This document shows, one piece after another, positions 2,564 through 22,619 of a DNA stretch of 25,666 bases (position 1 is the stretch's first letter; the number at the start of each line of letters is the position of its first letter). Under the pieces are notes generated by a model. That model was not told the DNA's origin. It made no database searches and worked only from the letters and a program-made list of their open reading frames with translations. Made by a program: the position numbers and the translations under genes. Source of the DNA: an uncultured bacterium (GTDB taxonomy: Bacteria > Myxococcota > XYA12-FULL-58-9 > JABJBS01); NCBI GenBank assembly GCA_964013555.1, contig CAXGXL010000001.1:1-25666 (forward strand), read 5' to 3'.

Positions 2564-3742
2564 CTAAATAGCCGTTTTCTCTTTTTTATCGCTCCCAAGT
2601 TCAATTAATACGGCTTCGGCCGGGCAATTCACTCGAAATGGCAACCAATGTCCTAGACCGGCTGATGTATAGAGATGACTTTGTCCTCGCTGATAATGGC
2701 CCATAAGGTAGCTCTTCGGCGCAAAAGGCTCAAACAAAGAGCGCCCACCGAAGCCAATCTGTCCACCGTGAGTATGGCCAGCCAAAGTTAAAGTTACGCC
2801 TCTTTCAGCTGCAGCGTCAAACCCCTGAGGCCGGTGACACAAGAGAATGGTTATTGGAATATCAACGGGCTTTTCAGCTAAGGCAGTGTCGACGGTTTCG
2901 TGGAAAAAAATTCGTCTACGCCTCCACTGTCGAGCAGGATCGTCCGCCCCGGCTAGCCAAAACTTAGAACCGTTTATCTCTAAAGCTACCCCTTTATTAC
3001 AAAGAAAACCCACACCTTTGTTCTGATAAATTCGTTCAGCTTCTTCACGTCCTCTATAAATTTCATGATTGCCAATACAAGCAAAGATTCCCAAAGGAGG
3101 CTCTAAGGTCGCCAAGGAATCAAGCGCAGGCTCTAATTTAGAGTAATCGTCAGCGATATCTCCCGTCAGAACAACCAAATCAGGCTTAGCTACCGCAGCA
3201 AGGCGCACTATCTTCTGAATTTGCTGGACGCCGATATGCAGTCCCAGGTGAACATCCGTTAGATGCAAGATCCGCATGCCTAGCAATCCCGCCGAGGCAG
3301 GGCCAAGGGACATGGAAACTCGTTTCAATATAGGATCCTGCAATGCAGCTCCTACCCCCAAAGGGGTGCATGCAAACGAGAGTGCCGGAACTGTAGCAGC
3401 CGACTTTAGAATAAGTGAACGTCTCCCAAGATCGACCTCTGGCGCCTTTGTATTGAGGCACTTGGCCCAGAATTTCAAAGGTAACCAGACCAAACCCGAA
3501 ACAACGATTGCCCACATTGCTAATCCAATAGTTTGTGCCAATACAGAAAAAAACTGCGCCGCATCGGGATGCGATTCTCGAAAGAGAAAAACCCCACTTA
3601 TGCCAATACCGATCAGCAAGTACGCCAAAAGCGTTCCACGGCTTAACCAACCACTCCAGCTCGCAGAAAAGCCGAACCGCAAAAACACAGCAGGGAGGGC
3701 CACAAACAACAAGCATCCAACGATAAAGCTAACCCAGACCAT
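2564..3742 (-). CDS. Membrane-anchored calcineurin-like metallophosphoesterase (YkuE/YaeI-like)
   Basis: Motifs HLTDVH, LTGDIAD, GNHE, LLCHRP, GHTHGGQ and TSAGLG are present, preceded by about three TM helices. ATG at 3742 has AAGGTG upstream; the ORF track uses GTG at 3751. Confidence 0.93.
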   Translation of the reverse strand: MVWVSFIVGCLLFVALPAVFLRFGFSASWSGWLSRGTLLAYLLIGIGISGVFLFRESHPDAAQFFSVLAQTIGLAMWAIVVSGLVWLPLKFWAKCLNTKAPEVDLGRRSLILKSAATVPALSFACTPLGVGAALQDPILKRVSMSLGPASAGLLGMRILHLTDVHLGLHIGVQQIQKIVRLAAVAKPDLVVLTGDIADDYSKLEPALDSLATLEPPLGIFACIGNHEIYRGREEAERIYQNKGVGFLCNKGVALEINGSKFWLAGADDPARQWRRRRIFFHETVDTALAEKPVDIPITILLCHRPQGFDAAAERGVTLTLAGHTHGGQIGFGGRSLFEPFAPKSYLMGHYQRGQSHLYTSAGLGHWLPFRVNCPAEAVLIELGSDKKEKTAI

Positions 3743-4135
3743 TCGCGTCACCTTGATTCATAGTTATTTATTCACACGCCTTAACACAAAATTGGAAATT
3801 GTCTCATACTTCAAGTGATTCCGCTACCGGTGTAAAAAAGTACCTCGCAGGTAAACCATTGTTTGTGGATACCCTAACCGAATAAAAGAGGTTAAAAACC
3901 AGACCTCTTCCCCAATTAAGTTGCTCCGATTCTAGAGTGAAAAGTCCACTAAGAGACAAAAGGGTAAGGTCGGAGAAGCTTTGGAAAGCCGTACCACAAC
4001 TCTACCGAGCCCAATAAACCAACCAACGGTCAGCCATCAAAGGACCAATATCCCCCCTCCAAAAAACTTGGATACTCCGGTGTCTCGCACTCGTCCCGAC
4101 GGTGCTCTAAGAAAGCCACAACCTACAGAAATAGA

Positions 4136-4162
4136 ACAACAATCTTGTCTAACAACCGATAA
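4136..4162 (+). promoter_or_regulatory. Putative sigma-28 (FliA-like) promoter
   Basis: ACAAC-N14-ACCGATAA, a 7/8 match to the GCCGATAA -10 box, ending 41 bp before the GTG at 4204. Same spacing as the sites at 10645 and 23689. Confidence 0.5.
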
Positions 4163-5921: not shown

Positions 5922-8702
5922 TTAAAGTAGTTTCCCACTTCCCTCTAGCTCAAATTTAATAAGTTTACGACTCAAGCGAACCACCCGTTCTAAGAACTTG
6001 TAATTGCGAAACGTGTGTCCCATTAAATATAGCCCTAGTCGATTGATAATAAAGTCGTTTAACCCATAAAGATAACCCTTGCGCCACAACTCTCTATCAA
6101 GCGTCACCTTCGCAGCTTTCTCCAAACTGACTCGGTGAAGTTCAATAAGAGAATCAACCTCCTTTTTCGTAACTGTTTCATGCAAACTAAACACCAAGAA
6201 TTCAGCTAAATCCCGTTGTGGAATATGCAGAGTAGCCAACTCCCAATCGTAAGCACACAAAGTCAGTTTACCATCTTCCCCGCGTCGAAAGCCCAAGTTA
6301 CGTGGGTTAAAATCGCCGTGAATTAGCGTGCGAGGCATGGCCTCTATTTCACTCCACCAAGTTCCAATCTCACGGATAAGCTCATTGGCATATTCTACAT
6401 CCGCTTGCTCAAACCAAGAGGAAAACTCTTCACCCGCATGGCCTGTCAATGCTTGCCACAGAGGCTTCATCTCAACCATTGCCTCTGCAGACATCACCTC
6501 CCCGATCCACGACTCTTCTTTCAGAGAATCTTCTTGCCCCAAGCCAATACTGTGTAAATCAGCTAAGCCTACTATAGCCGCTTCATAGTGTTCCTTAGTC
6601 CACTCCGTGATATCGTTGGCAGTATTCATCAGCTCCAGATTACTCAGATCTTCAAGCACTAAAACATATGCCTCGCGTTTTGGGTCTTGGTGACATGCGT
6701 GAACCTTCGGAGTCAAACGCTTAAAAAGAGGATGATTTTGGCTGTAAATTGCCAGTTCACGTATATGACATGCCTTAACGCCTACGCGATCCTTAAATTT
6801 ATTGTAGGCAGAAGCCAATTGTCCACCGCACATCTGAGCCATCCCGTTGCTCATGAGGATAACCTCTTGATCAATAGGTTTGACTTTCACCATCACCTTC
6901 ATGTCCCGAGAAATTCCTCGGCCATCCATATAGTGAATTCTCTTAGGAAAGAGGCCAACCAATTTGTCGACCTTACGAGCAGTCAGTTCGGTTATGATGC
7001 TACTGCCCATCACCATCTCGAAATCCTCAACCTCTTTGACTTCAAGAGCTAAGTCCCCCAACTCTCGCTGCAAATAAGGCTCAAAAAACTTAGAGTTCAA
7101 ATCGGATTGGGTAAACCAATCTACGGGCCTATTACGACCCAGCTTGTCGTGAGCGGAAGCAAATTGCCCCGACGCCATTGCCGAAAGAGTTGAAATATCC
7201 AAAGCCAGACAATACCCGGCGATTATTTCAGCCAACCTCCCTGACCGGTTGGCCCCCTTGCACCCCATTAATTCGAGATAGTTGCCCTGATTGGGAAGAT
7301 TGGTTCCCCCTCCTACACTACCTACAATCAACGCAGGCAAATCCAATGAAAAATGAACTGCCGTGTCACTAGCGTGCACCCGTAGGTTTCCCAAACTAGA
7401 TTCATGAACCGATGCGATATCCTGACCAGTAGCAGTAAAGATAGCCGCTATGGCGTTTGCAATATTCACATTGTTGCCAAGCATACCTATGCTTATACCT
7501 GCAGCTACTCCATTCTCGTGGGTTTCTCGCAACTGCCGCGGCGTTACCTTAAGAACCTTCTCCAAGATTTCGTTAGGAATAAGAGCCTCCGCAGAAACTC
7601 GGGTACCGCGCCCAACCAAGAAGGACTGAAAGTTGGCCTTCTTATCCCCGCTCATGTTCCCGTCGACAGCAAACCGTTCTACCACTATGTCCGGATAAAA
7701 CTGCAACTGCTCCAAAAGCCACTGGCACGCCTTCCACGTGCAAGAAGTCGTCATGTTCTGACCGGCCGCGTCCCCAGTTTCATACGCAAATGTAATGTTA
7801 ACCCTGGGGCCGACTTGGTCAGGTAAGACTGCGGTCAAACGGGCATGTTTTGACACGAGACGTGTTTGGGCCCGAATTTCCTCCACATGGTCTTCGACCC
7901 AAGCACGAAAAGTACTCGCGGCCTCCGTCGAATTAAAGACAAAAAGAGGCACTCGAAACATTCGTTGCCGATGCACCCTAGTAGTAACCCCGCCAGAACG
8001 CGAAATCGCAACAGCTCCCCGCGTAGCCGACGCAACTAAAGCTCCTTCTGTCGTAGCCATAGGAGCGTAAATGGGCCCAATTACGTTGTCTCCCTTGAAC
8101 CAGAGAGGGCCAGCAAGTCCAACCGGTATCTCAACACTCCCCACCAAGTTTTCGATGTTGCCCGTCAAGCTCTCGGCAACCAAGTCTATTTTGTCTAATG
8201 TCTCTAGGCTTGCCCCCGAAACTCTGCGCGCAAACGCAAGGCGCTCTACGCGCGCCTCTTCCGTATAGTGACCGCGCCCCGGAATACGCTCTAGTTTCTC
8301 AGGTTGAACAGCCTCATAAGCTTCCGCCTCCTTGATGGTCTGCAATTGATGAAAAACTCGCCACAAAGTAGCTCGTGTCTCAGAGTCTTCACCCAAAAGA
8401 CCCAATTCGACATTGCCATCGGCGACTCTGACCACACGAGTCACCGTCAAACGCTCGAGAACATGGCAACTCAGAGCCGTCCCTAAAGAAATTCTTTCCA
8501 TTAACGACCCGGGAGCCGGAAACGCAGAAGCGGGTAAATTAAAGAGCACCCTTAAACCGTTTTCCGAAACGTCCATCACTTTACCGATATGTGAATCCCC
8601 TCCTAGGCTCAGTTTGACATAAGCACTCTTAAGCCCACCAAAAGCCTCATCGACATCCTGCATTTCCAACCGTTTTTTGGCCCGTTCAAGAGAATTGGTC
8701 AT
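5922..8702 (-). CDS. hmgA: PilZ - class I HMG-CoA reductase - APH/choline-kinase-like phosphotransferase fusion
   Basis: HMGR motifs ENLVG, PMATTEGALVAS, DAAGQNM, GDKKA, TGQD, GSVGGGT and SAH. C-terminal HGDFNPRN and YDWE. N-terminal RAKKR and DVSENG. GAGGTG precedes TTG 8708 and ATG 8702, and the spacing favours the ATG. Confidence 0.92.
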   Translation of the reverse strand: MTNSLERAKKRLEMQDVDEAFGGLKSAYVKLSLGGDSHIGKVMDVSENGLRVLFNLPASAFPAPGSLMERISLGTALSCHVLERLTVTRVVRVADGNVELGLLGEDSETRATLWRVFHQLQTIKEAEAYEAVQPEKLERIPGRGHYTEEARVERLAFARRVSGASLETLDKIDLVAESLTGNIENLVGSVEIPVGLAGPLWFKGDNVIGPIYAPMATTEGALVASATRGAVAISRSGGVTTRVHRQRMFRVPLFVFNSTEAASTFRAWVEDHVEEIRAQTRLVSKHARLTAVLPDQVGPRVNITFAYETGDAAGQNMTTSCTWKACQWLLEQLQFYPDIVVERFAVDGNMSGDKKANFQSFLVGRGTRVSAEALIPNEILEKVLKVTPRQLRETHENGVAAGISIGMLGNNVNIANAIAAIFTATGQDIASVHESSLGNLRVHASDTAVHFSLDLPALIVGSVGGGTNLPNQGNYLELMGCKGANRSGRLAEIIAGYCLALDISTLSAMASGQFASAHDKLGRNRPVDWFTQSDLNSKFFEPYLQRELGDLALEVKEVEDFEMVMGSSIITELTARKVDKLVGLFPKRIHYMDGRGISRDMKVMVKVKPIDQEVILMSNGMAQMCGGQLASAYNKFKDRVGVKACHIRELAIYSQNHPLFKRLTPKVHACHQDPKREAYVLVLEDLSNLELMNTANDITEWTKEHYEAAIVGLADLHSIGLGQEDSLKEESWIGEVMSAEAMVEMKPLWQALTGHAGEEFSSWFEQADVEYANELIREIGTWWSEIEAMPRTLIHGDFNPRNLGFRRGEDGKLTLCAYDWELATLHIPQRDLAEFLVFSLHETVTKKEVDSLIELHRVSLEKAAKVTLDRELWRKGYLYGLNDFIINRLGLYLMGHTFRNYKFLERVVRLSRKLIKFELEGSGKLL

Positions 8703-9020
8703 AGACAAACACCTCGGATTTACTTCTTTGTCGTCCCATACGGGTTAAAATATTCTTTTCTCGGTACAAGACTCTACTCCCCCCAAAAACAGCCAATAGA
8801 GAACCTCCAACCAAGAGTCACTCACTCCATTTAGAAAAGTGCTAACTCGAGTTATCACCAAGGTAAAACCAGACAATCGCAGGGCTGCTAGTATGAATTC
8901 AGTGGCTTAATTTCAATATCGATGATTCCTTGATACAATTGCTTCAAAAGAGCAATAATTCAACAGATCTGGCGAATTCGAAGGGGTCTACTCCGCTAAC
9001 CACCCTCAACTAGGCATAAA

Positions 9021-10253
9021 ATGGTCGAATCTGATAAATATATCACCTATCAAAGCGAGGGCGGCTCTCCCATCAAAGCATGGACTCGGGGGGTTCCTTT
9101 TGACGCCAAGGCCCAAGAACAAGTAAGAAACGTAGCCAATCTGCCTTTCATCCATGGATGGATTGCCGTTATGCCTGATGTTCATTGGGGGATGGGCTCC
9201 ACTATTGGAAGTGTCATTCCAACCGTGGGAGCCATCATCCCGGCAACCGTTGGTGTGGATATAGGGTGTGGGATGATGGCCGCAAAAACCACACTCACGG
9301 CCTCTCAACTCCCCAATAGACTCTGCGATATTCGGCGTGGAATTGAAATGGCTGTGCCTCACGGCCGGTCTAAAGGGGGGCGCAAAGGAGACCGGGGCGC
9401 TTGGCAGAGCATACCCAAGCGAGTTTATAAAACATGGGATACACTCTCGGATCGATTCTCTTCCCTAGTCAATACTCACCCAAAACTCGCCAACGCCAAT
9501 AGCATAACTCATCTGGGCACACTCGGTACAGGAAATCACTTTATCGAGGTTTGTTTGGACGAAAGTGACGCAGTCTGGGTAATGCTGCACACCGGATCAC
9601 GTGGGATCGGCCACCGAATTGGCATGTATTTCATTGAACTCGCCAAAAAAGACATGCTGCAACACAAGAGTAATCTACCCGATGAAAATCTCGCGTATTT
9701 TAGCGAGGGGAGCATGCACTTTGACCAATATGTGGAAGCAATCGGATGGGCCCAGGACTTTGCCCATGCCAACCGCGCCACCATCATGGAATCTGTACTT
9801 AATACATTGCAGCAAGCCCATGAGCTTCCGAAATTCGAAGCGACCCGTATGGTAGTTGATTGTCATCACAATTACGTCAACCGTGAGACTCACTTGAACA
9901 AGGCCGTTTGGGTAACGCGCAAAGGAGCGGTCCGAGCTGGCGCCGGTGAGCTCGGCATTATTCCGGGAAGCATGGGCGCGCAGTCGTACATCGTGCGAGG
10001 CAAGGGCTCCGAAAACAGTTTTCATAGCTGCAGTCATGGTGCGGGGCGAGTGATGTCACGAACCGAAGCAAAGAAACGATTCAGTTTGTCAGACCACCTC
10101 AGAGCGACTAAAGGTATCGAATGCCGCAAAGATACTAACGTCCTTGACGAAACCCCGGGGGCCTATAAAAATATCGATGCAGTAATGAAAGCGCAATCAG
10201 ATCTAGTGGATATCGTCCACACCCTACGACAGGTCATATGCGTTAAAGGTTAA
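9021..10253 (+). CDS. rtcB: RtcB family RNA 3'-phosphate/5'-OH ligase
   Basis: Motifs MPDVH, GVDIGCGM, GTLGTGNHFIE, HTGSRG, HHNY, RKGA, PGSMG, SHGAGR, DETPGAYK and terminal VKG. Confidence 0.97.
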   Translation: MVESDKYITYQSEGGSPIKAWTRGVPFDAKAQEQVRNVANLPFIHGWIAVMPDVHWGMGSTIGSVIPTVGAIIPATVGVDIGCGMMAAKTTLTASQLPNRLCDIRRGIEMAVPHGRSKGGRKGDRGAWQSIPKRVYKTWDTLSDRFSSLVNTHPKLANANSITHLGTLGTGNHFIEVCLDESDAVWVMLHTGSRGIGHRIGMYFIELAKKDMLQHKSNLPDENLAYFSEGSMHFDQYVEAIGWAQDFAHANRATIMESVLNTLQQAHELPKFEATRMVVDCHHNYVNRETHLNKAVWVTRKGAVRAGAGELGIIPGSMGAQSYIVRGKGSENSFHSCSHGAGRVMSRTEAKKRFSLSDHLRATKGIECRKDTNVLDETPGAYKNIDAVMKAQSDLVDIVHTLRQVICVKG

Positions 10254-10775: not shown

Positions 10776-12530
10776 ATGACTAGCATTAAACTAACTCCTA
10801 CAAATGAGAATACCTCTGCGTTCGCGTCGCCGGCAACTCAACCATCTACGTCTCCCGAAAATTCTGGTCAGAATAACGTAAACCAGGCCGATGCGAGTGA
10901 GCTTAGCCAAGGAAGGGTGGCTGCACCGACGACTAACAATGACCCAATTGGTTCCTCTTCTAAATACCTCCTGAACGGCTTGACACTACCTCATACCCAA
11001 GTAGTAACCTCCTCTGACTCGGTAAAGCAGCAAAAGGAAACAGATTTGGATCCCATCTTCCAAAAGCAACGACAAGCTTTGTGCCAACGATATGAAGCAG
11101 CAAAAGAGGGTGCCCCCATCCACTTCGTCTTTTTGCCCACCCGATGCCAAGGACTGCCTCCATCCGAATTGGACACTTTCTATCAAAGTCGTTATCTATG
11201 GGAGTGCGCAAGAGCTGTAACCGAATTCCCCAATGCACGCGTAAGCTATGTCACCAACGATCCGGTCCACCGAGAGAACTTTGCTGAGTTAGTGAAGTAC
11301 CATCCCGACGCCGATAAAATTCTCGCTCGTACAAACTTTGTTGCCATTGGAGGGAACGCGAGCGATGGCATCCAATCAAGCCTACTTCATAGCGAGGAAG
11401 CTCTAGAAACAATTCGTTCACTCGGTAAACCCGAGGAAACAATCATGCGATGCTTCGCCTCTCAACCTGAGCTCTTTTCTATTAGTGAAAAACTGGGCAA
11501 TATCCCAGTAGAAGCCTCCCACTCCCCATTATTAGATGGGTGTGGAACCAAAAGTGGTGGTCGAGAAATCTTCAGTCGAACCACCCTAGATACCATCGAT
11601 GGGGCAAATCATATTCACCACATGGACCAACTCGTCTCGGAAATGAGCAAGCTGTGGCTTAGAAACCCCACTAAAACCAAGTTCATGGTAAAACTCAACG
11701 AGGCTGTCAGTGGGCAAGGCAACGCTATTGTAAGCTTTCCTAAAGATGTAGATCCTGCCTCCTTAAGAGCATCAGAGCGCGCCGATATAGTGCGGAACTT
11801 AGTCACTAAAGTCGATTTTAGAAGTACTGCCGTCAATTCAGCTAACTTTCCGGAAGTTCTTGCGGAACTTGGTTGCGCGATTGAGGTCCGAGCCACGGGC
11901 GATTCCGTTGAAGAAGTCATGGGGCATGCCTTTATTCACCCCAATGGTGAAATCGAATTTCTCGCGCCTACTTTGCACCACGTTTTAAATGGTGCACATC
12001 AAGGCGCTGCTTTTCCGGCCCCCAAAGAATATAGTGATCAAATCCAACAAGCGACCATCAAGGTAGGAGAAGAACTCCGTGAACTAGGAGCCGTTGGCTA
12101 TTATGGACTAGATTACCTAGCCGTAAAAAACGATGGAAAGACTCGCTTTCTTCCATTGGAGATCAACCTGCGCCAAGGCGGCAGCGTACATGGACTCGGA
12201 CTCGCTAAATTGGTAACCGGCGCAAAATACGATCAAGCCACTGCAACGCTACGTACCGAATCTGGAGAATGTGTTCACTACCGATTGAATAATCACATTC
12301 TCGATCAGCATTCCAATCTTTGGAAAAACCGACCCGTCTCAGAGCTTGAAGCTGCCCTCAACAAAAGCGACCTCTTGTACAACGACACTAAAGGCTGTGG
12401 TGTCATTCTGCATCTAAAAGAAGCTCTTCAACCAACTGGCCATATAGGATTCCTCGTTGTGGGACGCAATAATGACGAGGTAGATAGTATCTACCAGCAA
12501 GCTTCCCAGATAATGCAGAACGGCCGTTAA
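10776..12530 (+). CDS. PGM1-related ATP-grasp peptide ligase with disordered N-terminal extension
   Basis: Motifs ARVSYVT, GTKSGGREIF, VKLNEAVSGQGNA, GLDYL, EINLRQGG and GVILHL..IGFLVVG parallel the pre-ATP-grasp, ATP-grasp and PGM1_C regions. AGGA lies upstream of the ATG. Confidence 0.85.
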   Translation: MTSIKLTPTNENTSAFASPATQPSTSPENSGQNNVNQADASELSQGRVAAPTTNNDPIGSSSKYLLNGLTLPHTQVVTSSDSVKQQKETDLDPIFQKQRQALCQRYEAAKEGAPIHFVFLPTRCQGLPPSELDTFYQSRYLWECARAVTEFPNARVSYVTNDPVHRENFAELVKYHPDADKILARTNFVAIGGNASDGIQSSLLHSEEALETIRSLGKPEETIMRCFASQPELFSISEKLGNIPVEASHSPLLDGCGTKSGGREIFSRTTLDTIDGANHIHHMDQLVSEMSKLWLRNPTKTKFMVKLNEAVSGQGNAIVSFPKDVDPASLRASERADIVRNLVTKVDFRSTAVNSANFPEVLAELGCAIEVRATGDSVEEVMGHAFIHPNGEIEFLAPTLHHVLNGAHQGAAFPAPKEYSDQIQQATIKVGEELRELGAVGYYGLDYLAVKNDGKTRFLPLEINLRQGGSVHGLGLAKLVTGAKYDQATATLRTESGECVHYRLNNHILDQHSNLWKNRPVSELEAALNKSDLLYNDTKGCGVILHLKEALQPTGHIGFLVVGRNNDEVDSIYQQASQIMQNGR

Positions 12531-12741: not shown

Positions 12742-14106
12742 CTATTCGCAGAGTTTCTCTTCGCATTCCTGTATCGTTTTGAACTCCGTTTCATGGGTAA
12801 CTTCCCCGCAAGCACATTCCTCAAACTGCCCCCAAGATACCCGACCAAAGCTTCGTTTCTGACAGCCCACCGCTAACTCACAACTCGATTTTGTAACAAA
12901 GGGAGTCTTATAGTCTACTCGCCCGCAATAGCAATTCGCTCCGGCTCCCCATCCCTTTCTAGCCCACGTCCCAACCAGGGGCGCTGGAGCCGAACACGGT
13001 TCCACATTGCATTCCGTCGATTCTGTCATGGGTCCCACACAGAACTTCCCTCCATCCGCAGGAGCCGGATTGTCACAACGCCTAGACCGTCTTTTCGTTC
13101 CACCTCCACACACCTTCGAGCACCATCCCCAATTTGACCAAGCAGACCAACCACCATCAATTTTTTCCCCTTTTTCACATGGCTCCGGGTTGCATGAAGC
13201 CTCCTCCCTTAAAGGCCCAACACAAGTAATTCGACCGTTTTTCGTAACCGAACTCGCGCAAGTTCGCGTTCGCTCTTTCGTTCCACCGCCGCATTTTTTT
13301 GAACACCCACTCCATCTAGACCAAGGAGACCAAGCAGCCTTCGTTACTTTTTGAGAAACACAAGGCTTCGTATTGCACGGTGATTCTTGTGATGAAATTC
13401 CAATACAATCGCGTCCCCCATTCTCCGGAGCCGGGCTTACACAACTTCGTGTCCGCCTTTTTGTTCCACCACCGCAACCTTTGGTACACGAGCTCCATTT
13501 TGACCAAGCAGACCAGCCACCGTCTACGACCTTTTCTAATGGCGTTCGCCACTCACATACCCCCTTTAGTTCCTCCATTTGACACGCTTGTTTGCTCCCC
13601 ACTTTGCACCTCTCAGAGTTGGTCTTCGTCGGCACTTTCTCTTGACACTTCCCAAGAAAATCACAACCAGAATCCTCAGCGCAACGGCCACGACTAATGG
13701 GTTCTTCCGAAAGGAGACACTCTGAAGACTCTATTTCCAACGAACCACGTTGACATAACACATCGCGTATATGAGTACTCTCGCCACACTCGCCCTCACA
13801 CATTCTCCATGCCGAAAACGACCATTGGCCACAGTTTTCCCCCACGCAGGGCCGGTTGGTCGCTGGTTTCTTCGCCGAACACAGAGAATCTTCCACCACC
13901 GCATGAGACTTTAATTCCTGACACGAAACCCTTCTTAACTGAGTTCCGTTATTGCACTGAACTGAGCATTCACCGTATTCACCTATTTCCCATCCATGTG
14001 TTTTGCGCTCACTGCAACTCTGGTTAAGCAACACAACGAACACGCATAGGAGGTAAGCAAAAAAAGCTAGTATGGTCCGTCTAGCCTTCTTATTGCACCC
14101 CATCAT
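12742..14106 (-). CDS. Exported, possibly lipid-anchored, thrombospondin type 1 (TSP1) repeat protein
   Basis: Basic plus hydrophobic N-terminus ending NQSC31, two ADAMTS-type TSRs, three classical TSRs (DGGWSxWSxWxxCxxxCGGGxxxRxRxC) and 45 Cys. GGAG spacing may favour the second ATG at 14103. Confidence 0.9.
   Translation of the reverse strand: MMGCNKKARRTILAFFAYLLCVFVVLLNQSCSERKTHGWEIGEYGECSVQCNNGTQLRRVSCQELKSHAVVEDSLCSAKKPATNRPCVGENCGQWSFSAWRMCEGECGESTHIRDVLCQRGSLEIESSECLLSEEPISRGRCAEDSGCDFLGKCQEKVPTKTNSERCKVGSKQACQMEELKGVCEWRTPLEKVVDGGWSAWSKWSSCTKGCGGGTKRRTRSCVSPAPENGGRDCIGISSQESPCNTKPCVSQKVTKAAWSPWSRWSGCSKKCGGGTKERTRTCASSVTKNGRITCVGPLREEASCNPEPCEKGEKIDGGWSAWSNWGWCSKVCGGGTKRRSRRCDNPAPADGGKFCVGPMTESTECNVEPCSAPAPLVGTWARKGWGAGANCYCGRVDYKTPFVTKSSCELAVGCQKRSFGRVSWGQFEECACGEVTHETEFKTIQECEEKLCE
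12994..13527 (-). repeat. Three tandem intragenic TSR-encoding units with a 183-bp period
   Basis: The first Trp of each unit is at aa 198, 259 and 320 (61-aa period). DNA similarity is visible: tttgaccaagcagacca near 13135 and 13500, and gttccacc near 13097, 13280 and 13463. Confidence 0.85.
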
Positions 14107-14580: not shown

Positions 14581-17500
14581 TCACACCATCTCGGTTTCCT
14601 TAACACCACCGAATGACCTAAGATCTTCAACGATCAGGTACAAAGCGGGAACAATGAGCAAAACAATAAAAGTAGCAAAAAGAACTCCAAAGCCCAAAGA
14701 AACCGCCATAGGAATTAGAAATCGCGCCTGCATCGAGCTCTCAAGAATCATCGGTGCCAAACCAAAAAAGGTCGTAAGCGAGGTCAAAACAATGGGGCGA
14801 AGCCGCCTCATCCCCCCCCAAACCACTGCGCCGTAAGTGTCAACGCCCCGCTGGCGAGCGGCATTGACGGCATGTATCAAAACGAGCGAATCGTTTACAA
14901 CGACGCCGCTCAAAGCAATAACGCCAAACATGCTTATAATCGATAAACTATATCCCATCACTAGATGCCCGATAATCGCTCCAACCATCCCGAACGGAAT
15001 TGCCGACATTATGATTAAGGGTTGTACATAACTTCCGAAAGGAATTGCCAAAAGCGCAAAGATAACAAAGAGCGCCAAAATATAGTTCGGTCCCAAGCTA
15101 GAAAGACTCTCCGAGCGATCACGTTGAGAACCCGTAAACTCCAGCTCCAGCGACGGGTATTTCGCCCGAAGTTCGGGAAAAACAGTCGCCTGAATATCCG
15201 CCAGAACCTGACGAGACGACTTTACCCCTGCAGCCAGCTCACCTTTAACATTAACGATTCGCTTTGCGTCCTCCCGGCGGATGTCGGTCGCAGCCCGGCC
15301 ACGGTCAAACTTCGCGACTGAACCCAGAGGAAGCAAACTCCCCGTTGGGGTTCGAATGGGAAGACGCTCGAGATCATACTCCGAACTTCTTTGCTCCTCT
15401 GGCAAACGAACCACGACTTTCACCTCATCCCTACCGCGCTGTTCACGCAACGCCTCAGCCCCAAAAAACGCCGACCGCATTTGTCGAGCAACAGACTCTG
15501 CAGTCAACCCAACAGTGCGGGCCAAAGGCAACAGATGAAAATTCAACTGCGGCTTGCCGGCGGCGTAGGTGTTTTCCACGTTCTTTAATTCTTTGTACTC
15601 CAAAAGAACGCTGGCTACTTCATCCGACGCCCTTGCCAGTACATCGGTATCGCGATGAGTCAATTGAACGTTGACCGCAGCCCCTGCTCCAGGCCCAGCA
15701 GAGCTATCGAATGTAAGAGCCTGAACACCAGGAAGTGTCGGGGTATTTTTCGCCCATAAATTTGAAAGCTCCACCGCTGAGATATCGCGTTCTTCACTGG
15801 GAACCAGATTGATTTCAATACTCACCAAATGGCTCCCTGATTCAGATCGGCCCCGGCCCGTGCGCATATTGCCCACTGTGGTATAGACCCCTCGAACAAT
15901 TCCGTCTTGCCCAAGGTTGTCGACAGTTTTTTGCCAAGACTTCTCTAACTCCCGACGGACTTCCTCTGTCCTCTCTAAGGAAACACCATAAGGAAGCCGA
16001 GCAGCTGCCCTGATTTCATTTCCCTCAAGCTTTGGAAAAAAGTTGAAAGGCAATAGACCGCTAGAAACCGCACCGAGACTCACAATAAGACAAGCAAAGG
16101 CAATGGAAAGAGCAAAATATCGACGATTTAAGACAGCCTTTAAGCACCGCTGATACGTAGTTCGGGTAAAGTTGTCCAACCAGCCGCTGGCTTTATTATG
16201 AACGGACTCGAGAGGCGAAAGCCATCTTGGTGTTTTGCGGCCAGCATGCGCTAGGTGAGCTGGCAAAATCCAAAATGATTCAATCAGGGAGAAGAGTAAG
16301 ACCGCAACGACAATCGAAGGAATAAAACGAAAAATTTTCCCAGTAAAACCCGGAACAAAAAAAAGGGGAGCAAAAGCAGCAACCGTAGTTAGGATGGAGA
16401 AAGTTACTGGCTTAGCCATCTCGCGGGCACCAGCAATAGCGGCATCCATTCTAGACTGTCCCTTCTTCATATGAATCTGTATGCTCTCACCAACCACAAT
16501 CGCATCATCCACCACCATCCCTAAGGTCACTATAAATGCAAAAAGAGTAACCATATTAATCGAAATATCAAACCCTGGCATCAAGACGAATGCCCCCATA
16601 AACGAAATGGGGATTCCCAATGCCACCCAACCGGCAAGAGAGAGGTCCAGAAAAAGCGTCAGTATAATCAAAACTAAAATCAATCCAGTTACCGCATTAC
16701 GCATAAGTAAATCGATTCGAGCCTCGAGCATTTCAGAGCTATCTTTGAGAACCGTGACTTTTACAGTATCAGGTAAGTCCTTTTTGAACTTTTCAATATA
16801 GGACTTTACCGCATCGGCGATGGCAGTAGGTGTTTCGTCACCGATTCGATAAGAAACCACGCGAACCGCCGGCTCACCGTTAAAATAGGTTTCCTGATCA
16901 GTGTCCGCATATCCATCTTTGACAGTCGCGATATCTCCAAGCCTTACTGTATAGCCTTTATCCGTGCCTCGAATGAGAATTTCTTCGAACTCACTTCCCC
17001 GCTTCCGGCGATCCGCCACCCTCAACAAGAACTCCCCCGAAGCCGCATCAATTCCCCCTCCGGGAAGCTCAACGGAAGCCTCCCGTATCTGTCGAGCAAC
17101 ATCTCTAAGATGAAGGCCATAGGACTCCAGGCTTTCCCTCGATATCTCGACAGCCACTTCCAGCGGTCTAACTCCATCAATTTCGACCAGGGTTACCGAC
17201 TTCGTATCTATAATTCCAGCGCGGGCTTTTTCCGCTAAGTGATGTAAAGTGTCAGGAGGTAGATCTCCAGATATCACCATGGAAATCACCTCTCTCCGAC
17301 CCGAAAGCAAAGAAACTCTTGGTCGCTCCACATCCCGAGGCATCGACACAATCCTATCCACAGCATTCTTCACATCAGCTAGCACCTTATCGGGTTCCTC
17401 GCCCACCAGAAGGGAGATATTTACAGTCCCCACCCCTTCAAGTGCGTAGGAAGTTACCCGCTTGACACCGTCCAATCCACGCACCGCTTCTTCGGTCACT

Positions 17501-17712
17501 AGTAAAATACCTTGCTCCACTTCGGCCGGACTCGCTCCCGGATAGGGAACGGTTACCTGTACAACATCGGTTTCAAATGCAGGAAAAACCTCTTGCTTGG
17601 TTTGGAAAGCCCCGAACACCCCTCCAAGAAGAATCACACACATCAAAAGATTTGCGGCAACTGGACTACGAGCCATCCACGCGATAACTCCTCGCTTGCT
17701 TGATTGCGACAT
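14581..17712 (-). CDS. RND efflux transporter permease (AcrB/AcrD/AcrF family)
   Basis: 1043 aa with motifs GMVVDDAIVVGE, GVVVND and RLRPIVLTSLTT, two TM clusters and large periplasmic loops. Confidence 0.96.
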   Translation of the reverse strand: MSQSSKRGVIAWMARSPVAANLLMCVILLGGVFGAFQTKQEVFPAFETDVVQVTVPYPGASPAEVEQGILLVTEEAVRGLDGVKRVTSYALEGVGTVNISLLVGEEPDKVLADVKNAVDRIVSMPRDVERPRVSLLSGRREVISMVISGDLPPDTLHHLAEKARAGIIDTKSVTLVEIDGVRPLEVAVEISRESLESYGLHLRDVARQIREASVELPGGGIDAASGEFLLRVADRRKRGSEFEEILIRGTDKGYTVRLGDIATVKDGYADTDQETYFNGEPAVRVVSYRIGDETPTAIADAVKSYIEKFKKDLPDTVKVTVLKDSSEMLEARIDLLMRNAVTGLILVLIILTLFLDLSLAGWVALGIPISFMGAFVLMPGFDISINMVTLFAFIVTLGMVVDDAIVVGESIQIHMKKGQSRMDAAIAGAREMAKPVTFSILTTVAAFAPLFFVPGFTGKIFRFIPSIVVAVLLFSLIESFWILPAHLAHAGRKTPRWLSPLESVHNKASGWLDNFTRTTYQRCLKAVLNRRYFALSIAFACLIVSLGAVSSGLLPFNFFPKLEGNEIRAAARLPYGVSLERTEEVRRELEKSWQKTVDNLGQDGIVRGVYTTVGNMRTGRGRSESGSHLVSIEINLVPSEERDISAVELSNLWAKNTPTLPGVQALTFDSSAGPGAGAAVNVQLTHRDTDVLARASDEVASVLLEYKELKNVENTYAAGKPQLNFHLLPLARTVGLTAESVARQMRSAFFGAEALREQRGRDEVKVVVRLPEEQRSSEYDLERLPIRTPTGSLLPLGSVAKFDRGRAATDIRREDAKRIVNVKGELAAGVKSSRQVLADIQATVFPELRAKYPSLELEFTGSQRDRSESLSSLGPNYILALFVIFALLAIPFGSYVQPLIIMSAIPFGMVGAIIGHLVMGYSLSIISMFGVIALSGVVVNDSLVLIHAVNAARQRGVDTYGAVVWGGMRRLRPIVLTSLTTFFGLAPMILESSMQARFLIPMAVSLGFGVLFATFIVLLIVPALYLIVEDLRSFGGVKETEMV

Positions 17713-17715
17713 TGG

Positions 17716-18909
17716 CTATTCCTCGCGACTTTCTAATCCAACTTCACTAACCCTACCGCCTGATTCCTGGTGCACATCTCGCACCCGAACTCGCATCCCC
17801 TCAATAGGAAGCGACAAAGAACTCACCAAGATACGGTGACCTCTTTCAACCCCTGCATCGACAAAAACCGATTCTTCCGTGGTCCATAGAGGTTCAACCT
17901 CTAAGCGTTTAAGTTTGTTATCCTCCACTAGCCAAACAATATTCCCATCTCGTAGAGCGGAACGAGGTAATTTCAACGAATTCTCAACGAGGTTTCCCTC
18001 AATCTGAACCGAAACAAATGCCCCTGCCAATAAAGGTACCCCACTATGCAAATCCATAGGACGTTCAACGGCAACCAAGACCTGTGCCCGTCTGGTCTGT
18101 GCATTCAATTGAGTTACGACTCTCAAGACGCGTCCCTTGCGTTGGGTTGTTCGGCCTTGCCCCAAATTGTGGGTAATCGTTACTACAGAAGGCTCTCCAT
18201 CCGCCTCAGTTTTAATCCATCGCAATGAAGACACCGGAACAGCCACAGTAACCCAAAACTCTTCGGTACCCATAAGGCGCGCAACTTTCGTGCCCGGCCC
18301 AACAAGCTGACCTACATCCACCGCTTCATTAACCACGGCCGCATCAAATGGAGCTACAAGTCTTGTTCTCTCCAGACTCAGTTTCGCCCGTTCGACTCCA
18401 CTTGCAGCTGCTCTCACTTTAAAGGCCGCCACCGCAAGCTGGGGTTTTCGAAGTGCCAACTCAACAGAATCCACATTTCTCCCGGTACCCAAAATCTCCC
18501 ATTCTTTTTTTGCGATTCCCTGACGTGCTTTTTCCCTCTCAAACTCAAGTTCCGCAGCTCGCAATTTGCTCTCTTCTTGTTGTAAAATAATATTGAAGTC
18601 TCTCGCATCGATGCGGGCAATGGTCTCCCCCATTGCAAAGCGGCCGCCTGGCATTAACTTCTCTGATATCCAAACAATGCTTCCGGTAATTTGTGGAATC
18701 AATTCGATCTGCTTACCAGGCACAACAATGCCTGTAGCAGAAACGAATGCCTTCCACGGGCCATCCGCAACTTCATAAACATCAACCGCTACCTCAAGAT
18801 CCTTTCCCTTTGAACGCTTCGCTTTCGGTCGCAACATTGTCATGGCAACAACTATGACAATTGCCAAAACGAGAACACCAGCAATTGGGACAATTCGCCT
18901 TAAGCTCAT
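17716..18909 (-). CDS. RND periplasmic adaptor (membrane fusion protein)
   Basis: N-terminal TM anchor, lipoyl-like PQITGSIV..GGRF and APFDAAV..VDVGQLV motifs flanking a coiled coil. Lies 3 bp from the permease. Confidence 0.93.
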   Translation of the reverse strand: MSLRRIVPIAGVLVLAIVIVVAMTMLRPKAKRSKGKDLEVAVDVYEVADGPWKAFVSATGIVVPGKQIELIPQITGSIVWISEKLMPGGRFAMGETIARIDARDFNIILQQEESKLRAAELEFEREKARQGIAKKEWEILGTGRNVDSVELALRKPQLAVAAFKVRAAASGVERAKLSLERTRLVAPFDAAVVNEAVDVGQLVGPGTKVARLMGTEEFWVTVAVPVSSLRWIKTEADGEPSVVTITHNLGQGRTTQRKGRVLRVVTQLNAQTRRAQVLVAVERPMDLHSGVPLLAGAFVSVQIEGNLVENSLKLPRSALRDGNIVWLVEDNKLKRLEVEPLWTTEESVFVDAGVERGHRILVSSLSLPIEGMRVRVRDVHQESGGRVSEVGLESREE

Positions 18910-18911
18910 GG

Positions 18912-20312
18912 TTATTTTCCTTTCACTTTTCCGAGTTCATTCACCCAAGGGCCGCCCACCGCTGCGCGCAATCGCACTTGAGAAACAACCTGGGTTCGCT
19001 TGGCTCCAATAGCCGTCAATTGGCTCTGGTGAAAACTCCTTAGAGCTGTAAGGGTCGCAACATAGTCGCCAACTCCGGACAGATACCGGTCTCGTAATTG
19101 CTCATATGCCAACCGAGTTGCCGACAAAACTTCGGTGACTGCTTGCATCTGTGCCTTCGCAGCGCGCACAGTAGCTAAAGAAGTATCCACTTCGCTAATG
19201 GCTTTCCTATAAAGCTGCTCATAAGTTAAACGCGCCGCATTCAGATTAGCCTCGAACTCCTCGACCGCTGCTTGATCAGAGAAACCGTTAAAGAGTGGCA
19301 AAGACAATATAACACTGGCCCTCCAAGCATCTGTCTTTTGCAACTCCCTTTGAATCATATATTGATAACCGTACTGGCCTGATAATCGTAAAGTTGGCAG
19401 ATGCCTTCCCAAACTGCTAGCAGCTCTTGCTTTCGCCGCCTCGTAAAGCATTGCAGCACGACGTAAATCTGGTCGATGAAAAGCCAAGTCGGAAGGAATC
19501 CCCGCCCCCTTGGTCTCAATTCCATCCGGTAGTTCTACCGGTGTTGGCACAAGCGTCGTAGAACTATGAAGGCCAAGCAGAATTCCGAGACGCCGCTGAC
19601 TGTTCTTAACTAGAGCGTCGGCCAACGGAAGACGAGAAGCCGCTGTGGCAACCTGTCCTTTTTGCTGAAGCACTTCTACTCCAGAGGCTTCGCCTCTTTC
19701 AAAACGCAAGTCGATTACTTCTAAGAAGTCTCTACTCACTTTAAGCTGTTCTTGCAGAACTACCAATTGCTCTTTTGCAAGAATTAAGTCGAGATAAGCC
19801 TCTGTAATACTGAGTGCCAACTTAAGAGCTGCATGGTCAACCTCCGCACTCGTAGCTCCTGCGTTTTTTCGAGCGGCCTGATAAGCCAAATAAGTTCGGG
19901 CAGCATAATCCACAATGTAATCTGCTCGAAGTCCGACATTGCCTGTATAATAAACTCTAGATTGATCCAAATTATCCAGGCCGGAGTCACTCATGTAACT
20001 CGGATTCTGAATTCTGAACGAAGCCATAGGAGCCGCATTTAGCGTAGTGTCAAAACTGACCGACGGTAATAAAGGTGAAAAGGCTTGTTCAGTTTGGGCC
20101 CTCGCTTTGCGAATCAGCGTTCGAGTCGCAGCAATATCTCCATTTTCTGATAGCCCCTCCTCAATCAAAGCCTCCAATCCCACTAAACCGGGCTCTGTCC
20201 ACCAGGCTATTTGTGGCAGAGGACCGGCCGCTGGCTCCACAAAAGTAGGAGGAAGCCAGGAGGGAATCGGAATAGTAAACAAAGCCGTCGCAATAAAAAT
20301 ACCAATGAACAT
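18912..20312 (-). CDS. TolC-family outer membrane efflux factor
   Basis: OEP repeats (RFERGEAS..EVLQ, RPDLRRA, LSLPLFNG, RYLSGV). AAGGA RBS before ATG 20312. Lies 2 bp from the adaptor gene. Confidence 0.92.
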   Translation of the reverse strand: MFIGIFIATALFTIPIPSWLPPTFVEPAAGPLPQIAWWTEPGLVGLEALIEEGLSENGDIAATRTLIRKARAQTEQAFSPLLPSVSFDTTLNAAPMASFRIQNPSYMSDSGLDNLDQSRVYYTGNVGLRADYIVDYAARTYLAYQAARKNAGATSAEVDHAALKLALSITEAYLDLILAKEQLVVLQEQLKVSRDFLEVIDLRFERGEASGVEVLQQKGQVATAASRLPLADALVKNSQRRLGILLGLHSSTTLVPTPVELPDGIETKGAGIPSDLAFHRPDLRRAAMLYEAAKARAASSLGRHLPTLRLSGQYGYQYMIQRELQKTDAWRASVILSLPLFNGFSDQAAVEEFEANLNAARLTYEQLYRKAISEVDTSLATVRAAKAQMQAVTEVLSATRLAYEQLRDRYLSGVGDYVATLTALRSFHQSQLTAIGAKRTQVVSQVRLRAAVGGPWVNELGKVKGK

Positions 20313-20655: not shown

Positions 20656-21897
20656 GTGTCTAACAAATCCGTATTATGCGTTGATGATAGCCGCGCAATA
20701 CGACGGTACGTTTCGGAAATTCTCTCACCGGACATTCATTGCATCGAAGCCGCCAATGGGCACGAAGCACTCCAGGTTTTAGCAACCCAAAGAGTAGATT
20801 TGATTTTACTCGATTTGGAAATGCCGGAACTAAACGGAGAAAATACTCTCAAAGAAATTCGGTTAGAGGGTATAACAACTCCCGTCGCGCTTTTCACTGC
20901 TGCTCGACAATACAGTCGGCTCGAAGAGCTCTTCCAACTTGACGTTATTGATGTGCTACTCAAGCCCTTAGAGGCTGGATTTATGAGAGAAAAAATCAAA
21001 GCACTTCTGCGCATTTCCGACGCCTTAGCACCTGCGCCTCCAATAGAAACGGAAGCCGAAGGTGCCCAGACTAGTGCCCCATCCGGCAAAGGAATGCGAA
21101 CCGTGGGGGCCTCTGCCCAAATCGATGCCAACTCATCATCAGAAGTAGCGGAAGACACAAACCAAGCGATAGTTCGGTATCTCGTTATCCAACAAGTAGC
21201 GAAGCCACTCTCGGTATGGCCTATCGAATTGGACGAATTCATTATCGGCAGGAGTAAAATGTGCTCGCTCGTAACCCCCGACGTCACCATAAGCCGAAAA
21301 CACGTCCGAGCAACCCCACTAAGTGCTGGACTGCAATTGACGGACCTCGGAAGTCAAAATGGTATCGGGTTTGCCGGCGAAACGGTTAGAGAGGTAATTG
21401 TAACTTCTGGACAGCAATTTCAAATCGGTAGATTTCTTTTTACCTACGAAGAAAAAAACGAATTCGACACACAAGCCCATCTGGGAGACCAATACACCCT
21501 CGATGGAAACCCAGCTATTTTGGCAAGAGTTTGCAGTGATGAGGGAGATCCTCGGTCTCAATCAACCGTATTCCTCGAAAAAGAAGTAATGAAGGAGATT
21601 TCAAATCGAATTCGCTTTAAGCAAGCACGCCTGGTATCCGAAAATCACCTCGCAGCCCCTATTTTGCTAGGCGATTACAATTGGACCTTCAAACGTAAGA
21701 AATGGGAAAGAGCGAAGAATAAACCAACCACAGGAACCTGTGGCATTTACTTCGATGGCGACCGCCACATAATCCGCTCCAATAATTCTTGGGGAGCTAA
21801 AGTCCACCGCAATAACGAGCTTCTTGAAGAGCCGCAAACTCTAAAGGAGGGAGATCTCATTTCAATTGGTAAACTTACGTTTCAATATGTCCTCTAA
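20656..21897 (+). CDS. Response regulator: receiver + FHA + degenerate FHA-like domain
   Basis: AGGAGG RBS before the GTG start. Receiver residues DD10-11, D53, T81 and KP. FHA motifs IGRS, SRKH and DLGSQNG. C-terminal LKEGDLISIGKLTFQY. Confidence 0.88.
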   Translation: MSNKSVLCVDDSRAIRRYVSEILSPDIHCIEAANGHEALQVLATQRVDLILLDLEMPELNGENTLKEIRLEGITTPVALFTAARQYSRLEELFQLDVIDVLLKPLEAGFMREKIKALLRISDALAPAPPIETEAEGAQTSAPSGKGMRTVGASAQIDANSSSEVAEDTNQAIVRYLVIQQVAKPLSVWPIELDEFIIGRSKMCSLVTPDVTISRKHVRATPLSAGLQLTDLGSQNGIGFAGETVREVIVTSGQQFQIGRFLFTYEEKNEFDTQAHLGDQYTLDGNPAILARVCSDEGDPRSQSTVFLEKEVMKEISNRIRFKQARLVSENHLAAPILLGDYNWTFKRKKWERAKNKPTTGTCGIYFDGDRHIIRSNNSWGAKVHRNNELLEEPQTLKEGDLISIGKLTFQYVL

Positions 21898-21965: not shown

Positions 21966-22619
21966 TCACACTTTCCTACGTCGTTTTGTAGGGCACAGCT
22001 TTGTCAATAGCTTGATAAATTGCTCTTCACTCGCTTGTTGCCAAAATACAGGAGCGGTCCGGATCAGAGTCATGGCTCGACTCGGATCGAGCTCGCTGTA
22101 AAGCTCGTTATCTGTATCCAGCGCTCCTCCTTCAACTGCCTGCCGCATTCCCTGCTCTACGTGAACACTACCAATAGTAAAGGAAATCATGGCATAAAAT
22201 GCCTCTGTTGCCTCTTCTTCTGAACCAACCAAAGCACTCAACTCGGCCAATATATCCTCTAACAACTCCAAGGATGTTTGAGAGATACTCCGCGCCGTTC
22301 CTAACAAGGGAATCACCCCGGGATGAGTCAAGAGTCCCTCCCTAATGCGCCTAAAACTTTCAATAACCCACTTCCGACCCTTCAATTCGGTATGGCTAGT
22401 TACATCAAAAGAAGCAATCACTTTGTTCAGGAGTTGTTTTTCAATATCTGCTTTACTCTTAAAATGGCCATAAATGGCCATAGGAGATACCCCGATCGAC
22501 GCAGCTAACCTTCTGACGGTGACCGAGTGCAACCCACTTTCGTTCCCAATTTTCAACGCTGCGTCGATTACTTTTTCAGGGGTCAATCCACCCCGAGGTG
22601 CGCGTTTGCGCTTCGCCAT
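21966..22619 (-). CDS. TetR/AcrR family transcriptional regulator
   Basis: HTH LTPEKVIDAALKI..SVTVRRLAASIGVSPMAIYGHFKSK plus a TetR_C-like C-terminus. ATG 22619 has an AAGGAG RBS; the ORF-track extension to 22829 is probably non-coding. Confidence 0.92.
   Translation of the reverse strand: MAKRKRAPRGGLTPEKVIDAALKIGNESGLHSVTVRRLAASIGVSPMAIYGHFKSKADIEKQLLNKVIASFDVTSHTELKGRKWVIESFRRIREGLLTHPGVIPLLGTARSISQTSLELLEDILAELSALVGSEEEATEAFYAMISFTIGSVHVEQGMRQAVEGGALDTDNELYSELDPSRAMTLIRTAPVFWQQASEEQFIKLLTKLCPTKRRRKV

Follow-up and report, generated by a model that had tools for sequence, protein, structure and literature searches.

A single gene on the reverse strand of a 25,666-nucleotide contig from an uncultured member of the Myxococcota (NCBI GenBank assembly GCA_964013555.1, contig CAXGXL010000001.1, positions 1 to 25,666; this whole stretch is referred to as the window) was found to encode a soluble three-domain enzyme with all of its catalytic motifs intact. 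The gene (5922..8702, − strand) joins an N-terminal PilZ domain, a reductase domain with the fold of class I 3-hydroxy-3-methylglutaryl-CoA (HMG-CoA) reductases (HMGRs), and a C-terminal small-molecule kinase domain of the APH/EcKL type. The substrate pocket of the reductase carries the changes that set the recently described fatty acyl-CoA reductase FcrA apart from HMGR, the fusion belongs to a conserved operon in many other bacteria, and it is independent of the mevalonate pathway. On balance, and from sequence features, we lean towards a function in which the reduction of an acyl-CoA would be coupled to phosphorylation of the resulting lipid alcohol, giving an alkyl phosphate that would go into a lipid not yet described.

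The window is the complete contig C1 of a 4.6-Mb metagenome-assembled genome (934 contigs, 88.6% complete, 3.2% contamination), and the best-named relatives of its proteins come from Myxococcota. The extent of the gene was taken from its open reading frame, its Pfam matches and the position of a GAGG ahead of the start codon. The open frame (5922..8708, − strand, stop codon at 5922-5924) gives 928 residues when counted from a TTG at 8708, and 926 from an ATG at 8702. The ATG appears to be the likelier start, because a GAGG stands 8 nucleotides upstream of it and relatives begin at the same place. All residue numbers given here are counted from the TTG at 8708, and each is 2 lower when counted from the ATG. 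An earlier description of the gene made from the letters alone (the sequence-only reading) had also numbered from the TTG, and so named the correct residues from a start that is probably the wrong one. Its description of an HMGR-type domain fused to an intact kinase, with a complete reductase set (E221, K356, D430, H520) and retained kinase motifs (KVK, HGDFNPRN, DWE), was confirmed by the open frame, the Pfam matches and the residues themselves, and the conservation of these residues among relatives, detailed below, suggests that both domains are catalytically intact, as had been proposed.

The reductase domain was assigned by Pfam HMG-CoA_red (PF00368), which covers residues 154-525 (7134..8249, − strand) at E 7.5e-103. 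The catalytic residues of this class I HMGR-type domain are E221 (8046-8048, read in the translation, with the codon position computed from the frame), K356 (7641-7643), D430 (7419-7421) and H520 (7149-7151), the last three with checked coordinates and all on the − strand, and the E, K, D and H were kept in 117/117 members of the fused family. By sequence, the closest solved structures are true HMGRs, with 6hr7 at E 2.4e-71, and the NCBIfam equivalog model for HMGR, TIGR00533, scored 276.7 bits, below its cut-off of 441.8.

FcrA is a clade of class-I-HMGR homologues with fatty acyl-CoA reductase activity (Grossi et al., ISME J 2025, PMC11948995). With NADPH, the enzyme of Ca. Promineifilum breve (Pb-FcrA) turns acyl-CoA of C14 and longer into the alcohol; HMG-CoA is not reduced by it, and simvastatin does not inhibit it (PMC11948995). 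According to the same paper, FcrA keeps the catalytic tetrad of HMGR and differs from it at three pocket positions: S684 of the human enzyme is replaced by Glu, the salt-bridge Lys K735 (printed as 795 in the text of that paper) by a small residue, and L862 by a bulky one, and FcrA of N. pharaonis carries Glu360, Gly411 and Trp528 at these positions. The roles of S684 and K735 in true HMGR, namely contact with the HMG carboxylate, for K735 through a salt bridge, are confirmed in PMC9500038.

True-HMGR references for the pocket comparison were the solved human (1dq8), Arabidopsis (8ecg) and Methanothermococcus (6hr7) enzymes only. In HMMER alignments, these three have S/K/L at human positions S684/K735/L862, where the window protein has D349 (7662-7664), G400 (7509-7511) and F516 (7161-7163), all on the − strand and all of FcrA type. 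Among members of the fused family, 103/117 have E and the other 14/117 have D at position 349, position 400 is F, A, V or G, with positions 398-400 mostly non-basic, and position 516 is F in 117/117. The spacings also agree: the catalytic Lys and G400 are 44 residues apart, and G400 and the catalytic Asp 30, identical to those in N. pharaonis FcrA (K367, G411, D441), and F516 sits four residues N-terminal of the catalytic His, as does Trp528 of that protein. By these signatures, rather than by phylogeny, the reductase domain appears to be of FcrA type, looking like a fatty acyl-CoA reductase and not like an HMGR. A set of 120 standalone bacterial class I 'HMGRs', taken as canonical controls, was dropped when a check of position 862 showed the set itself to be of the E/F type, and FcrA-like; the view that the S684 to E change is not diagnostic, which had rested on that set, was given up with it. 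The genomic contexts of two standalone FcrA-like genes had no informative neighbours.

The kinase domain (residues 531-928; 5925..7118, − strand) was assigned from Pfam, an AlphaFold2 model, Foldseek and VIA-align as a small-molecule kinase of the APH/choline-kinase/EcKL fold. The best Pfam family was EcKL (PF02958; residues 648-865, E 3.1e-12, 46.9 bits against a cut-off of 22), followed by APH (residues 666-838, E 5.7e-9, 36.5 bits against a cut-off of 23.2). Three motifs with checked coordinates on the − strand mark its putative active site: KVK (6879..6887), whose K608 and K610 are candidates for the ATP-anchoring lysine of the N-lobe; HGDFNPRN (6297..6320), which matches the catalytic loop HxDxxxxN and supplies the catalytic base D799 as well as N804; and DWE (6240..6248), the metal-binding aspartate motif, with D821. 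K608, K610, H797, D799, N804 and D821-W822-E823 were all kept in 121/121 family members, and G798 of the window copy, where the family consensus is N, was the sole departure from that consensus noted. The AlphaFold2 model (predicted local distance difference test score, pLDDT, of 91.7) was aligned by VIA-align to solved small-molecule O-kinases at Z 17-19 over about 290-320 residues. Its structural neighbours include corramycin and macrolide phosphotransferases, choline, ethanolamine, type II homoserine, glucosamine and MTR kinases, and a 25-hydroxy steroid kinase (9fsg), which was among the top Foldseek matches. The only sequence match in the PDB was an ACAD11 chain, at a non-significant E of 0.036. 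Pfam and NCBIfam profile searches returned no GHMP match anywhere in the window protein, and no protein kinase was present among the listed sequence and structure matches of the kinase part. Judged by the fold of its model, the kinase part is a hydroxyl kinase of some small molecule.

The N-terminal domain (8319..8684, − strand) was identified as PilZ-fold from an AlphaFold2 model, Foldseek and motifs. The model of the first ~150 residues has a pLDDT of 85, and all of its top 40 Foldseek matches in the PDB are PilZ domains (YcgR, PP4397, MrkH, BcsA, Alg44; best E 6.9e-6, TM 0.56-0.61); the Pfam PilZ match is weak (E 0.023). Both PilZ motifs, RxxxR and (D/N)xSxxG, are found in the window protein, as RAKKR (8670-8684, − strand) and DVSENG (8556-8573, − strand), and are only partly kept across the wider family. 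These features suggest that the PilZ domain probably puts the enzyme under the control of cyclic di-GMP (c-di-GMP).

When the kinase part was used as query, 956 proteins were returned; almost all of the best 120 have ~900-930 residues and combine HMG-CoA_red with APH/EcKL. Scanning one genome per species, fusion relatives were found in at least 537 species genomes, in Myxococcota, many hydrocarbon-degrading (oil-degrading marine) Gammaproteobacteria, Photorhabdus, Zooshikella, Streptomyces, Nocardia, Rhodococcus, Spirochaetota, Oligoflexales and others. Between reductase and kinase, the connecting segment GRNRPV is conserved in the family. No convincing natural split form of the kinase was found, the shorter matches being mostly fragments at contig ends. 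Two candidates for such a form were set aside: L143, on a long contig, proved to be a frameshifted cluster, and L144, a standalone kinase adjoining a radical SAM gene, was not informative.

Partner genes were counted within 10 kb at 80 species loci. The most frequent were a UbiA-type gene (57 loci), a PEP-synthase/Rph-like (PPDK-like) phosphotransferase (57), an AMP-forming ligase (52), DUF3419 (47), MMPL (39) and a CDP-alcohol phosphatidyltransferase (35). At least one of four partners (UbiA, PPDK-like, DUF3419, AMP-forming ligase) was present at 42 of the 47 loci with full flanks. The commonest order was MMPL, UbiA, fusion, PPDK-like, DUF3419, ligase, CDP-alcohol transferase and a small membrane protein, all in the same direction, and the median gap between the fusion and the PPDK-like gene was 0. 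The cluster ligase has its nearest matches among fatty-acid CoA ligases (471 bits) and OleC, a weak likeness to the hopanoid transporter HpnN was seen for the MMPL protein, and the small membrane protein, which co-occurs with the fusion, is weakly CTP_transf_1-like. In two proteins of ~1170 residues (P0029 and P0067), a DUF3419 domain was seen fused ahead of the reductase-kinase, and by this Rosetta-stone link DUF3419 is tied to the same pathway.

The Streptomyces members stood apart from this pattern. Those at loci L085-L090, L096 and L099 are without the PilZ region, and the Streptomyces loci have none of the usual partner genes within 10 kb, save for MMPL in two of them. In Streptomyces the fusion may belong to another pathway, perhaps one that makes a natural product.

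From these data, a sequence of steps was put together for the coupled reduction and phosphorylation. The ligase would make a long-chain acyl-CoA, which the FcrA-type domain would reduce, in a four-electron reaction, to the primary alcohol; the fused APH/EcKL-type kinase would then use ATP to turn that alcohol into a long-chain alkyl phosphate, and this would be passed on to an undescribed lipid pathway encoded by the operon partners. Two continuations were considered. In the first, the PPDK-like enzyme would add a second phosphate and the UbiA-type enzyme would transfer the alkyl group; since a saturated primary alkyl diphosphate should be a poor substrate for UbiA-type chemistry, an allylic alcohol derived from a 2-enoyl-CoA is conceivable. 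In the second, the CTP-transferase-like protein and the CDP-alcohol transferase would treat the alkyl phosphate as CdsA and PssA treat phosphatidate. The MMPL protein would act as exporter of the product lipid. A fuller version of this scheme, which we put forward tentatively and regard as a possibility with the odds against it, describes the protein as a 'fatty alcohol phosphate synthase' gated by c-di-GMP and catalysing the committed step of a widespread undescribed pathway. This pathway would activate, reduce and phosphorylate a fatty acid and then follow either continuation, the second by way of a CDP-activated form and transfer to a head group, towards alkyl-phosphate-based or ether membrane lipids exported by MMPL, and the fused kinase domain would be the first kinase of long-chain fatty alcohols found in nature.

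Several points weigh against coupled reduction and phosphorylation of a lipid alcohol. The activity of the fused family is predicted from sequence and structure models, and we infer the identity of the acyl substrate, the use of the reductase's alcohol by the kinase and every downstream step. Membership of FcrA was judged from three signature positions, and the fused family departs from standalone FcrA-like proteins at H752N, M655A, M657Q and P693V. Most of the polar residues that contact HMG (R590, D690, K692, N755) are retained, and a short polar acyl-CoA therefore stays conceivable as substrate. The kinase fold points to no single substrate class, with Z values tied across choline, homoserine, sugar and antibiotic kinases. 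The CTP-transferase-like partner may mean that the pathway contains another lipid kinase; the idea that the fused domain stands in for a lipid kinase otherwise encoded by its own gene was considered and found unsupported, given that this CTP_transf_1-like membrane protein co-occurs with the fusion. The window copy itself sits apart from all of the partner genes. Finally, no natural long-chain alkyl phosphate pathway was found in the literature searched, and we know of none.

The alternative that survives best accepts an FcrA-type reductase and places the kinase elsewhere, on a hydroxyl of the acyl-CoA before reduction (as in ACAD10/ACAD11), on a later intermediate, or on a head group. The ACAD11 chain is the one PDB sequence match of the kinase, choline, ethanolamine and homoserine kinases are among its structural neighbours, and the steps could be assigned differently because the cluster encodes two more proteins that may transfer phosphoryl or cytidylyl groups (the PPDK/Rph-like enzyme and the weakly CTP_transf_1-like protein). 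Set against this, the ACAD11 match is not significant, and the fusion has been kept across the species counted above with its joining segment conserved, for which consecutive steps are the simplest explanation. We consider this alternative rather unlikely. The general idea of the sequence-only reading, that the kinase acts on the product of the reductase, is still the most economical one, although its choice of mevalonate as that product was not supported.

For the copy in the window, its isolation also had to be accounted for. The gene is solitary, with a divergent RtcB RNA ligase gene upstream (9021-10253, + strand, E 3.9e-128; 312-bp shared intergenic region), a convergent TGase-elicitor-like gene downstream, and nothing lipid-related nearby. 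A scan for promoters and terminators around the fusion gene gave no more sites than in shuffled sequence. A second fusion copy, truncated at its 5' end, was found elsewhere in the genome, on contig C421, tail-to-tail with a cluster-type PEP-synthase/Rph-like phosphotransferase gene (the pair occupies 18-2774, + strand, and 2845-4152, − strand), and further partners were located on other small contigs: ligase and UbiA on C484, MMPL and then DUF3419 on C103, and DUF3419 on C180. Contig C137 carries one or more further cluster genes. In a tree of kinase domains, the second copy groups with P0002 and P0004, the latter directly followed by DUF3419, and the window copy pairs with P0007, which has DUF3419 directly downstream.

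This arrangement, in which the partner genes are found on separate contigs, one partner adjoins the second copy, and the nearest tree relative is still next to DUF3419, could be taken to mean that the window copy is a redundant, decaying duplicate without a function of its own. Decay is nonetheless very improbable: the frame of 928 codons is uninterrupted, all catalytic and signature residues are intact, G798 alone is off the family consensus, and the two copies are 56% identical, which argues that both have been kept for a long time. The window gene is thus an intact paralogue that stands alone, the other copy being the one linked to the cluster.

The sequence-only reading had proposed that the reductase makes mevalonate from HMG-CoA and that the APH-fold kinase is a non-GHMP mevalonate kinase, serving an alternative isoprenoid route or a mevalonate-derived metabolite. 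Such an activity would be consistent with the intact tetrad, with the retained R590, D690, K692 and N755, and with true HMGRs being the closest solved structures; moreover, the canonical HMGR of this genome is also fused to a kinase, which would make reductase-kinase fusion a local habit. Against it, the ligands of the HMG carboxylate are altered as in FcrA, an enzyme that does not reduce HMG-CoA, and the equivalog score is far short of its cut-off. As that reading had stated, no mevalonate-pathway gene lies near the fusion, and this holds across the 25.7-kb contig; nor did PMK or MVD appear among the conserved partners at the 80 loci, which are instead acyl-CoA ligase, UbiA, MMPL and others.

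The genome was searched for mvk, pmk and mvd, whose absence the sequence-only reading had named as the thing to check. Contig C10 carries MVD (TIGR01240, 299 bits against a cut-off of 171), a PMK-like GHMP kinase gene below its curated cut-off, and a class II HMGR whose frame continues, where the contig stops, into the first part of a GHMP mevalonate kinase (15435-17048; TIGR00532, 411 bits against 260). The remainder of the GHMP mevalonate kinase (MVK) opens contig C634 (2136-2867; TIGR00549, 201 bits against 163), followed by type 1 IDI, and an HMG-CoA-synthase-like gene below its curated cut-off is on contig C300. A largely complete canonical pathway is thus present elsewhere in the genome, which is a fragmented bin, such that the tie of the window to the mevalonate contigs depends on binning. 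Dxr was not found in the contigs of this incomplete genome. Among related genomes, an HMGR-containing open frame of ~755 residues is the norm of the order (24/40), and from its length and by analogy with the gene split over C10 and C634 it may be read as an HMGR-MVK fusion. A form of 920-970 residues was seen only in the window's own family, beside the ~755-residue form in 3 of the 4 relatives that carry it; the pair of genes binned together here thus recurs in related genomes.

Dxr was found in 5/5 carriers checked from other phyla (Bacterioplanoides, from a complete chromosome; Photorhabdus viridis; Fluviicoccus keumensis; Zooshikella ganghwensis; and a Rhodococcus), and MVD or mevalonate kinase above cut-off in 0/5. 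Because these five carriers have the methylerythritol phosphate pathway and neither MVD nor MVK above cut-off, the fusion is independent of the mevalonate pathway. With pathway genes already in this genome, an FcrA-type pocket, and carriers lacking MVD and MVK, the proposed alternative isoprenoid route through a non-GHMP mevalonate kinase is highly improbable. Such a kinase would have mattered for the evolution of isoprenoid synthesis, and the evidence goes against it.

Phosphorylation of the reductase by its own kinase, also suggested in the sequence-only reading and recalling AMPK and eukaryotic HMGR, which is regulated by phosphorylation near its C-terminus, would fit the covalent linkage of the two domains, and is equally far-fetched given that the fold is that of a small-molecule and not a protein kinase, that the listed matches are all small-molecule kinases (EcKL, APH, choline, MTR, macrolide), and that the protein already has a dedicated sensor domain in PilZ.

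Nothing relevant to the fusion, its operon or the phosphorylation of fatty alcohols turned up in the literature searched, and the Lipocone paper describes only ordinary HMGR-GHMP neighbourhoods. FcrA itself has been known since 2025; the PilZ-FcrA-kinase architecture and its operon appear in no paper found. If coupled reduction and phosphorylation is correct, at least 537 species genomes carry an enzyme annotated as "HMG-CoA reductase" or "phosphotransferase" that is neither in the ordinary meaning, and a recently discovered acyl-CoA reductase would be joined to a kinase without a described counterpart. Since bacterial lipid synthesis is not known to pass through a long-chain alkyl phosphate, the operon would then be a sign of membrane or envelope lipids of a new class, which c-di-GMP might tune. 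A single protein would also suffice to turn acyl-CoA into alkyl phosphates, molecules of the surfactant type. As a caution for annotation, class I HMGR matches in bacteria would not warrant inferring a mevalonate pathway.

Other genes of the window were recorded separately. A protein of 454 residues consisting of several thrombospondin type 1 repeats (TSP_1, E 1.2e-26) is encoded at 12742-14106 (− strand), the domain being one known chiefly from animals. Two paralogous large ATP-grasp proteins, each with an IQCH-like ATP-grasp and a PGM1 C-terminal domain, lie at 10776-12530 and 23800-25665 (both + strand), and a circularly permuted ATP-grasp gene at 30-1256. A complete RND efflux operon (outer-membrane factor, HlyD-type adaptor, AcrB-type pump; 14581-20312, − strand) has a TetR-family regulator nearby (21966-22829, − strand), and a response-regulator-FHA protein is encoded at 20656-21897.

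When compared with described systems, the fusion of the C10/C634 gene has the same layout as the window gene, a thioester reductase followed by a kinase for its alcohol product, but its reductase is a class II HMGR, its kinase is of the GHMP type, and it adjoins MVD, the PMK-like gene and IDI in a real mevalonate route. Class I HMGR (EC 1.1.1.34) shares with the window protein the full-length PF00368 match, the catalytic tetrad and a C-terminal helix with the catalytic His, and differs from it at the carboxylate-binding S684 and K735 and at L862, all replaced here, as well as in the equivalog score, sub-cut-off here, and the mevalonate linkage, absent here. ACAD10 and ACAD11 also fuse an APH-type kinase to an acyl-CoA-processing enzyme with a lipid-type substrate. 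Their kinase is N-terminal and phosphorylates a 4-hydroxyacyl-CoA ahead of the dehydrogenase, whereas the kinase described here is C-terminal to its reductase. EcKL kinases and the 25-hydroxy steroid kinase (9fsg) are APH-fold enzymes that phosphorylate hydroxyls of lipophilic molecules; their identity to the window kinase is about 12-14%, they act on other substrates, and they are not fused to a reductase.

FcrA remains the closest counterpart of the reductase domain, with the same fold, catalytic E/K/D/H, three pocket changes and residue spacings, and both FcrA and the fusion are found in bacteria without a mevalonate pathway. In PMC11948995, FcrA occurs alone or with an N-terminal Lad or FadD and ACP, is linked to wax esters, and is described with no mention of a kinase or PilZ; the window protein, in contrast, has an N-terminal PilZ and a C-terminal kinase, and its family has the further changes H752N, M655A and M657Q. 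A search for the wax-ester family WS/DGAT (PF03007) gave no match in this genome, and the same search was silent in all control genomes too. ElbD of the myxobacteria, named as a parallel to FcrA in PMC11948995, differs from the window protein in its FarA-type reductase fold, its operon and its lack of a kinase, but is likewise a multidomain Myxococcota enzyme (FadD-ACP-FAR-PlsC-like, for alkyl ether lipids) that takes an acyl group to a fatty alcohol for a membrane lipid.

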